DNA of 64,000 nucleotides from Escherichia coli. Its GTDB lineage: Bacteria > Pseudomonadota > Gammaproteobacteria > Enterobacterales > Enterobacteriaceae. The notes beneath the pieces are model-generated. The model was not told the origin of the DNA. It was given only the letters and a program-made list of their open reading frames with translations, and did not search any database. Each line of letters starts with the position of its first letter. Within the stretch, counting starts at the first letter, position 1. The stretch is taken from assembly GCF_003334815.1 (NCBI RefSeq), contig NZ_QOWO01000021.1; one strand, 5' to 3'. Below are positions 1-1,140 of the stretch, piece by piece. The translations under genes and the position numbers were made by a program.

Positions 1-81
1 ATGGCTCATGATGTCCCTCTGGGATGCGCTCCGGATGAATATGATGATCTCATATCAGGAACTTGTTCGCACCTTCCCTAG

Positions 82-348
82 ATGAAGCTGATAAATCCAT
101 TAAAAATAAATAAGAGTGTCAACTTTTACATTCTTATCATACTAATAACGCGCTGCATAGCTTGCATCTTTTTTATGGCAATGTTAGGTACTATCCTTGG
201 TAGACTGATAGTTTTTTCTAAAACTCAAGTTTTATTTTTTGATTGGAGGGCAGATATTATTTATTCTTTAAAGGTGGGGGGGGGCAGGTATGTTAGCAGG
301 GATTGGTATTTGGATAAAAGCAAAGTTACAAGAAAGAAAAGACGATAA
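82..348 (+). CDS. Hypothetical small hydrophobic protein, possible immunity protein
   Basis: 88-aa ORF with a hydrophobic N-terminal half, lying upstream of the CDI cassette array; no recognisable motif. Confidence 0.2.
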   Translation: MKLINPLKINKSVNFYILIILITRCIACIFFMAMLGTILGRLIVFSKTQVLFFDWRADIIYSLKVGGGRYVSRDWYLDKSKVTRKKRR

Positions 349-618
349 AAAATAGGCTTACGGTAACTTCAAGTTTGGGGAATTTTTATTGGTAGTTATG
401 TTCTTGGTCAATGCCATCAGGAATGAGGTAATGTGCGTATTACCGTGGAAGTGATCGGTGAGTAACTCCAATCTCAATAGAGGTTATTGGGCGCTCTCCT
501 TCCATGAAAACACGCAACCTAATCGGGGACCGGGGCATATGCTGACTGGTGACAATACAGATGAAAATAAACTGCATGATATTCAACTTTTCCCGTATAA
601 ATAATAGGTGATTATCAG

Positions 619-1140
619 ATGAGCCATGATGCAGAGAAGAAAATAAGACTTTGTATTCAATGTGAGAATGAAGCACTGAAGGACAGTGACTTTTGCGCTG
701 TTTGTGAAGAACGCGAATTTAAAAAAATTCGTGGTTGGCTATACTTGCCTGCAATAGGACTGGTTTTAACAATTCTCGCTAATATGATCTCTATTAATTT
801 CACTATACGATTCTTAATGGAAAATATTGCGCAGATCGGTCACGCACAAAAAGGGATCCTCTTTTTTGAACTCTTTGCTTTCATAGGTATGTTTTCCTAT
901 GGAATTTTCGTTAGTAGCTTGTTTTTTCGTAAAAAGCGTCAATTGCCGCATCACTATATTGCACTTGTTGGGATAGGAACGATATTTGTTGTTGTCGATT
1001 TGCTGCTGGGCCACATCTATTTAGACGTGCCTTATGTTTTTGATACGGTAAAACCATTGGTACGTAATGTGTTTAGTGCCTGTATTTGGATCCCCTATTT
1101 CATTGTATCTGAGCGCGTTAAGCGGACATTTGTGAAATAA
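619..1140 (+). CDS. Hypothetical membrane protein with N-terminal CxxC...CxxC zinc-ribbon; possible immunity protein
   Basis: 173-aa ORF; CIQC...CAVC near N-terminus then about four hydrophobic helices; sits directly upstream of a cdiA homology handle. Confidence 0.4.
   Translation: MSHDAEKKIRLCIQCENEALKDSDFCAVCEEREFKKIRGWLYLPAIGLVLTILANMISINFTIRFLMENIAQIGHAQKGILFFELFAFIGMFSYGIFVSSLFFRKKRQLPHHYIALVGIGTIFVVVDLLLGHIYLDVPYVFDTVKPLVRNVFSACIWIPYFIVSERVKRTFVK

Follow-up and report, generated by a model that had tools for sequence, protein, structure and literature searches.

The first 1,140 nucleotides of the stretch of DNA analysed here (the window, 64,000 nt of Escherichia coli; NCBI RefSeq assembly GCF_003334815.1, contig NZ_QOWO01000021.1) are very probably the broken left edge of a CDI orphan toxin/immunity array that lies in a tRNA-Phe island, where an o10 toxin gene severed by ISKpn26, a disabled cdiI-o10 and a DUF2569 gene without a toxin follow one another (Table 1). 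The system itself is already known: it is the EC869 o10 cassette of an orphan CDI array, decayed through the insertion of ISKpn26 and a homopolymer frameshift. The main value of the analysis is thus a correction of the annotation, because the region holds the EC869 o10 cassette, known from experiments, in a copy truncated by an IS, and not a new cassette. It also adds a further example of orphan CDI arrays that erode through IS insertion and homopolymer frameshifts. Points that may be worth pursuing are the intact, toxin-less DUF2569 gene that moves between arrays and the variable G-run of cdiI-o10.

Table 1. Features at the left edge of the window, with strand and the basis of each assignment
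Positions	Strand	Feature	Basis
1-77	-	Outer 77 bp of ISKpn26 (IS5 family)	100% identity to annotated ISKpn26 ends
78-81	.	CTAG, target of the IS insertion	Single copy in IS-less relatives (alignment with EC556, FRIK944)
78-113	+	Last 11 codons (LDEADKSIKNK) and TAA stop of an orphan cdiA-CT of EC869 'o10' type	End of the toxin CDS in EC556, FRIK944
82-355	+	cdiI-o10 pseudogene, small inner-membrane immunity gene	Family alignment; frameshift relative to in-frame alleles
434-618	+	Non-coding mosaic spacer travelling with the DUF2569 gene	Junction mapping in relatives
619-1140	+	Gene for an intact 173-aa inner-membrane protein, zinc ribbon plus four-helix DUF2569, no partner toxin	Pfam PF10754, AlphaFold2
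1169-1950	+	Next orphan cassette: cdiA pre-toxin handle, VENN 1414-1425, Ntox25, frameshifted	PGAP annotation of the EC556 locus
1954-2409		Putative immunity ORF of 151 aa after the Ntox25 cassette	

The recognition of an insertion sequence at the left edge came from the comparison of the first 77 bases with other E. coli, which showed an identity of at least 99% at the best place in 2,157 records. The transposase gene of the element has its start codon at 9..7 on the minus strand, and only its first three codons (9..1) fall inside the window. The transposase CDS of the ISKpn26 annotated in ATCC 8739 reads on the opposite strand, with its start codon at the equivalent of position 9, so the window starts three codons inside the transposase gene. 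The gene reads inward from the ISKpn26 end and leaves the window leftwards, whereas the 5′ leader of the transposase and then the terminal inverted repeat, with its end at 77, occupy positions 10-77. The initial annotation had taken positions 1-81 for the open C-terminal frame of a protein. Frame 1 is indeed open up to a TAG at 79-81, but a plus-strand protein C-terminus is ruled out because 1-77 is the terminus of ISKpn26, whose transposase is encoded on the minus strand; the open frame is a by-product of the non-coding end of the element. About 1.1 kb of ISKpn26 must precede the window start.

Elements of the IS5 group target YTAR tetranucleotides, which they duplicate on insertion. The tetranucleotide CTAG abuts the visible end of ISKpn26, and the other end of the element and the second copy of the target fall outside the window. 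A megablast search with positions 1-1500 as query against 5,426 complete E. coli genomes returned no match spanning 77/78: the matches of the array type all begin at 78, and thousands of multi-copy matches cover just the first ~80 bases. The exact 46-nt junction between IS and array was not found in genome or metagenome contig collections, and none of the 10 places returned by an exact-protein look-up of the DUF2569 product has an IS5 element upstream. Neither a second IS5 copy nor the missing o10 sequence was found elsewhere in the window. According to the proposed mechanism, ISKpn26 would have inserted into an EC869 'o10'-type cdiA-CT, at a CTAG that precedes the stop codon by 32 nt. A simple insertion predicts that the rest of ISKpn26, a CTAG and then the o10 sequence '...GTAACAAAAGGAACA' would lie on the upstream side. 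An IS-mediated deletion or rearrangement would be the alternative to a simple insertion, and the window sequence alone fits either.

The identity of the severed gene was provided by relatives that carry it in full. Positions 78-16499 of the window are collinear with E. coli EC556 at 99.95% identity, and the annotated VENN pre-toxin gene of EC556 and of O157:H7 FRIK944 ends at the equivalent of position 113. In FRIK944, the toxin frame is open for 281 aa from VENN to the stop and lies directly upstream of the small ORF and the DUF2569 gene, which are followed by genes that NCBI names CdiA-o11 and CdiI-o11. This order of genes identifies the toxin as orphan 10 of an EC869-type array. Further, the toxin counted from VENN has 278 aa and a computed mass of 28.47 kDa; a FLAG tag brings this to 29.46 kDa, which matches the 29.5 kDa published for tagged CdiA-CTo10 of EC869 cleaved near VENN (Jones et al., 2021, mBio, PMC7858069). 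CdiA-CTo10 was described as an ionophore that enters through SecY and causes a SecY-dependent dissipation of the membrane potential (PMC7858069). The C-terminal 170 aa of the o10 toxin contain 30 Gly and give a weak glycine-zipper match, which fits the published membrane-depolarising activity; searches of NCBIfam and PADLOC with the o10 CT returned nothing significant. A full element consisting of handle, VENN and o10-type toxin occurs at the corresponding site of EC556, of FRIK944 and of the loci L008-L017, and the window itself keeps the last 11 codons and the stop. This tail differs from the O157:H7 copy by 1 nt. In the EC556 lineage, one G is missing from the toxin gene, which is split into two frames.

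The two ORFs reported in the initial annotation, at 82-348 (88 aa) and 619-1140 (173 aa), are both present on the plus strand and both are hydrophobic. The proposal that the first of them is the immunity gene of a cassette lying upstream holds as regards its identity, since it is cdiI-o10 and the last 36 nt of its toxin are kept at 78-113, but not as regards its integrity, since the copy in the window is a pseudogene that carries a frameshift and has lost its Shine-Dalgarno sequence. The ATG at 82 sits 32 nt before the toxin stop, and the same ATG in O157 and in the loci L011, L012 and L015 opens a frame of 91 codons that ends in KVGGGAGMLAGIGIWIKAKLQERKDDKK; in the window, this ancestral frame would end with the TAG at 353-355. 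The small ORF is more than a chance reading frame: it is one of a conserved family whose members overlap the 3′ ends of o10-type toxin genes in other genera. In a genome that is not E. coli (L020), an 87-aa orthologue overlaps by 29 nt the end of an o10-type toxin with 84% identity, and paralogues of 77-88 aa stand behind each related toxin in L020 and in a genome labelled Klebsiella michiganensis, as well as behind the o9 toxin of O157. Orthologues or paralogues occupy the equivalent position in O157, L020 and L022.

CdiIo10 has two predicted TM helices and has been shown experimentally in EC869 to protect against the o10 toxin (PMC7858069). The 91-codon ORF was assigned as cdiI-o10 because of these two predicted TM helices, given that the DUF2569 protein has four. 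A hydropathy scan of the 91-aa protein gave one long hydrophobic stretch and a glycine-rich segment rather than two clean TM helices, and the match to the two published helices is made by exclusion of the four-helix DUF2569 protein. The 91-aa allele is in frame in O157 and in four other loci, in contrast to the allele of the window and EC556. In-frame alleles have a run of 11 nt (G6AG4 or G11) where the window and EC556 carry G9 (276-284 in the window), and this contraction by 2 nt shifts the frame, so that the conserved C-terminal hydrophobic, Gly-rich segment G..AG...G.G.W...K is replaced by RYVSRDWYLDKSKVTRKKRR. In addition, relatives have an AAGGA Shine-Dalgarno sequence before ATG 82, and the window has IS sequence in its place. 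Because the Shine-Dalgarno sequence is replaced and the frameshift removes this conserved second hydrophobic segment, the cdiI-o10 of the window probably gives no immunity. Neither NCBIfam nor PADLOC returned anything significant for cdiI-o10.

The gene at 619-1140 gave a different picture. Its product matches Pfam PF10754 (DUF2569) with E = 1.1e-28, residues 35-172 aligning to positions 2-143 of the 143 of the model, and a CxxC...CxxC zinc ribbon at the N-terminus precedes the domain. The AlphaFold2 model, built with 45 homologues, has a confident pLDDT of 90.5 and shows the ribbon and helices at 39-69, 75-104, 109-135 and 141-163 followed by a short C-terminal helix. A Foldseek search of this model against the PDB returned generic helical bundles only (E of 0.9 or higher); PADLOC gave no match, NCBIfam none that was significant, and the Pfam colicin-immunity families did not match. 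E. coli YdgK is presumably also a member of the DUF2569 (PF10754) family. A full-text search of the literature for DUF2569 led to a single paper, in which the domain is only listed as part of a selC island. The gene has an AGGTGA ribosome-binding site at 605-610. Comparison of five array copies gave pN/pS values of 0.04-0.19, with pS up to 0.15, and this purifying selection suggests that the gene brings some benefit. The copy on the EC93 plasmid pCP127 is frameshifted, and the one in Z1323MEC0001 has lost one cysteine of the zinc ribbon.

The DUF2569 gene was found in 55 of the 5,426 complete E. coli genomes, and in every E. coli context examined it lies within a CDI array or beside an orphan toxin cassette. 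Its left neighbour is cdiI-o10 in the window, EC556, O157, E62 and others, a truncated handle in SMBL and on pCP127, a truncated DUF596 immunity gene in 33E and unrelated DNA in Z1323MEC0001. The left junctions of the unit that contains the gene map to window positions 434 (SMBL), 473 (33E) and 558 (Z1323MEC0001). None of the contexts examined has a toxin domain ending in front of the gene, which is therefore not in the position of a CdiI, and none has a partner toxin upstream or downstream. The spacer that travels with the gene includes, at 524-575, a scrap of the N-terminal linker of a CdiA-CT (RGPGH.L.GDNTDENK), which matches the inside of cdiA-CT regions of other E. coli at 86-90%. A stretch of 49 codons at 455-604, ending 14 nt before the ATG of the DUF2569 gene, was considered as the 3′ remnant of a cognate toxin and rejected: it consists of the linker scrap joined to unrelated sequence. 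A phmmer search of its product against 1.84 billion representatives returned the same fragment and weak matches to long proteins only. No Rfam family was found in 1-1140, and the results of promoter and terminator scans stayed within chance expectation. Further, the gene is absent from the o10-type cassettes of three other genomes (L020, L021 and L022) and from the paralogous o9 cassette, which shows that it is not inherited together with one toxin family. The view of the initial annotation that 619-1140 is the immunity gene of an upstream cassette is thus probably wrong, because no partner toxin accompanies the gene and the o10-type cassettes of other genera lack it.

The origin of the gene was approached through its homologues. 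The closest of them (59-81% identity) are single chromosomal genes, and in both contexts examined (a Kosakonia genome and an enterobacterial contig, 59-77% identical) the homologue adjoins fbp and has no toxin nearby. In some E. coli, the same yjfF-fbp site is taken by a paralogue with 36% identity, again with no toxin nearby, and a Serratia homologue with 55% identity lies near rpoD and mug. The homology of the array gene to its chromosomal homologues stops at the coding region. The most likely reading of these findings is that the DUF2569 gene was captured from a chromosome and is now carried along in CDI arrays with no toxin of its own. A single event of illegitimate recombination would have brought it from the chromosome of a Kosakonia-like enterobacterium into a CDI array, and it would then have moved between arrays as a toxin-less unit with ~60-185 nt of scrap upstream sequence. 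With no toxin partner evident, the benefit for which it is kept might be that it protects the membrane from an incoming toxin, and an immunity-like role of the protein is possible, although unproven. Homologues with 35-44% identity were also found at the tail of polymorphic toxin/immunity arrays of Photorhabdus akhurstii and P. luminescens, with differing downstream flanks, and these the capture scenario does not explain.

The Photorhabdus homologues of these two species bear on another reading, which is unlikely but keeps some weight, namely that the gene is a true orphan immunity gene: the arrays would have lost the matching toxin, probably a CdiA-CT that targets membranes, or competitors alone would carry it, and cells would retain the gene for protection in the way of other orphan cdiI genes. 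As with the proteins that give immunity to ionophores and pore-forming toxins, the product is an integral membrane protein (PMC7858069). Within CDI arrays, the gene has several different left neighbours, and the next orphan handle invariably comes straight after it; scraps of cdiA-CT sequence stand in front of the gene, which also has a good ribosome-binding site. Strong purifying selection acts on it while the adjoining toxins decay. However, a partner toxin is missing from every context examined, the closest homologues are the single chromosomal genes described above, and o10-type cassettes do without the gene in three other genomes, as does their o9 paralogue. The frameshift in EC93, the loss of the cysteine in Z1323MEC0001 and the outcome of the PADLOC and NCBIfam searches also speak against an orphan immunity gene. 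A somewhat less probable version gives the zinc-ribbon DUF2569 protein a role of a new kind: a stand-alone, toxin-less protective gene would have been recruited from an enterobacterial chromosome into the CDI arrays of E. coli, including that of the EC93 plasmid, and independently in Photorhabdus, and its product would protect the inner membrane, or a route of import such as the SecY-dependent one, from membrane-targeting CDI toxins. If this were true, resistance would be provided by a co-opted protein of the housekeeping type and not by a cognate CdiI.

The G-run of cdiI-o10 raises a separate question of interpretation. Alleles with G9, G10 and G11 were found among loci that have 0 differences over 1,274 other aligned columns, and because the length of the run differs among otherwise identical loci, the run must be either hypermutable or prone to assembly errors; the G9 length in the window could itself be an assembly error. 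It is improbable that G9 represents one state of a slipped-strand, phase-variable switch that arose after a change from G6AG4 to G11 and makes o10 immunity toggle within the population. Such a switch would account for the three lengths in otherwise identical loci, and the change in the run arose in at least two backgrounds; on the other hand, of the three lengths seen, a single one keeps the reading frame, the partner toxin gene is itself frameshifted throughout the lineage, the cdiI-o10 of the window also lacks a ribosome-binding site, and the length of a homopolymer is a classic assembly error. The reading of cdiI-o10 as a decayed gene is the one retained here.

The surroundings of the region indicate how the array and the island continue on either side of the window edge. 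The first kilobase has a G+C content of 37.8%, and values are mostly 37-49% per 1-kb interval up to ~20 kb (54% and 51% at 6-8 kb). The proximal end of the island is marked by two minus-strand features, a tRNA-Phe gene at 20101-20176 and, beside it, an ORF of 421 codons that probably encodes an integrase. Since the proximal end lies at this tRNA-Phe gene (~20.1 kb), the distal end of the island must lie to the left of the window. The extension of the island past the window start, as proposed in the initial annotation, is borne out by the first base, which falls within an IS and not in core DNA; a return to core genes immediately before position 1, which would have spoken against it, is not what the window shows, as it opens inside ISKpn26. 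To the right, the handle with its VENN motif follows the two ORFs as had been described, but it is not the first trace of cdiA, because 78-113 and 524-575 are already derived from cdiA. Relatives carry an intact ORF of 232 aa with PT-VENN and Ntox25 at the place of this frameshifted cassette.

In relatives without the IS, the remainder of o10 and an ORF of 137 aa in the position of a cdiI are found to the left of position 78. Further to the left, there is a long cdiA (2,316-2,318 aa) in L016 and L017, fragments of cdiA in L012, a cdiB-type gene in L011, and in EC556 remnants of IS followed by the kps capsule cluster. The CDI array once continued upstream of the window, and the proposed extension of the array is right in historical terms; any continuation in this genome would lie behind the IS. 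The idea that 1-81 is a plus-strand C-terminus and that 82-348 and 619-1140 are functional immunity genes of two further upstream cassettes accords with the open frame up to the TAG and with two hydrophobic ORFs before a cdiA handle, but is very improbable, because 1-77 belongs to an ISKpn26 element whose transposase is encoded on the minus strand, the reading frame of 82-348 is shifted in comparison with all in-frame members of its family and the ORF lacks a Shine-Dalgarno sequence, and the cassettes upstream amount to one (o10) and not two, the DUF2569 gene having no cassette of its own.

The features of the region can be compared with known systems. The end of the element is that of ISKpn26 and the IS5 group, with terminal 77 bp that are 100% identical, including the transposase start, and an insertion at CTAG; the difference is that one end only is within the window. 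The cdiI-o10 gene resembles those of CdiI EC93 and of the immunity proteins of pore-forming colicins in that its product is a small protein of the membrane whose partner toxin dissipates the PMF, although no sequence similarity to them was detected. The analogy between CdiIo10 and these proteins, as small integral inner-membrane proteins acting against membrane-depolarising toxins, was drawn in the study of the EC869 toxin (PMC7858069). The protein encoded at 619-1140 agrees with DUF2569 (PF10754) proteins in its full-length Pfam match and its four-helix membrane domain and differs through the zinc ribbon at its N-terminus and through the place of its gene, which is a CDI array here and a site next to fbp in the closest homologues. 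With respect to the orphan-10 module of EC869 (Jones et al., 2021, PMC7858069; for the arrays, Poole et al., 2011, PMC3150448), the toxin gene of the window is cut by ISKpn26, with 36 nt visible, and the immunity gene has a 2-nt frameshift and is without a Shine-Dalgarno sequence, whereas the plan is the same: an array of cassettes made of handle, VENN, CT and cdiI, in which the gene for a small membrane immunity protein begins within the 3′ end of the toxin gene.

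The pseudogene cdiI-o10, the small membrane immunity gene of the EC869-type orphan CDI cassette o10, carries at window 276-284 a G tract that occurs as G9, G10 or G11 among loci whose 1,274 aligned columns are identical apart from this tract (the window and the compared loci L001, L008, L009, L013, L014, L016 and L017). An in-frame cdiI-o10 requires 11 nt in the tract and every other length is out of frame; in older alleles the tract has the form G6AG4. Either the tract is hypermutable, or the length differences are errors in assembling a homopolymer.

In O157:H7 FRIK944 (L002, 13943-14197), a paralogue of cdiI-o10 of 84 aa immediately abuts the VENN motif of o10, and it is presumably cdiI-o9. 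By implication, o9 is a related cassette with a membrane toxin, and the DUF2569 gene (window 619-1140) is normally absent from cassettes of the o10 family. The next cassette of the window, with a handle, VENN and an Ntox25 toxin, is frameshifted here and in the near-identical, collinear relative EC556 but intact, with 232 aa, in L009, L013 and L014.

Where the CDI array ends on the right, the Rfam match to STnc490 overlaps the start of the tnpA ORF. The stretch at window 6083-12877 falls between the integrase end and the array, and its contents were read by collinearity with EC556. The proximal island junction is marked at window 18638-20176 by a tRNA-Phe gene and an ORF that is probably the island integrase, and the G+C content is low all the way from this junction to the window start.

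Features of the island in the window
Feature	Position	Strand	Remark
Next cassette: handle, VENN, Ntox25 toxin	1169-2409		VENN at 1414-1425; includes following ORF
Putative immunity ORF, 151 aa	1954-2409		After Ntox25 cassette
STnc490, Hfq-binding RNA	5361-5484		Rfam, 140.6 bits
tnpA ORF, IS200/IS605-type	5443-5952
Type I restriction-modification fragments	within 6083-12877		R C-terminal part, truncated M
DEAD/DEAH helicase, 1,093 aa	within 6083-12877
SymE-type toxin gene	within 6083-12877
421-codon ORF, putative integrase	18638-19903	minus	Just inside tRNA-Phe
tRNA-Phe	20101-20176	minus

The zinc-ribbon DUF2569 gene and its homologues were compared at window 619-1140, at L023, L024, L025 and L032, and at L007, L029 and L030; the copies of the gene in arrays have a pN/pS of 0.04-0.19. 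Its chromosomal orthologues are adjoined by fbp. In CDI arrays of E. coli, among them that of the EC93 plasmid pCP127, the gene repeatedly occurs with no accompanying toxin, and in two Photorhabdus species its homologues lie at the tail of polymorphic-toxin arrays.
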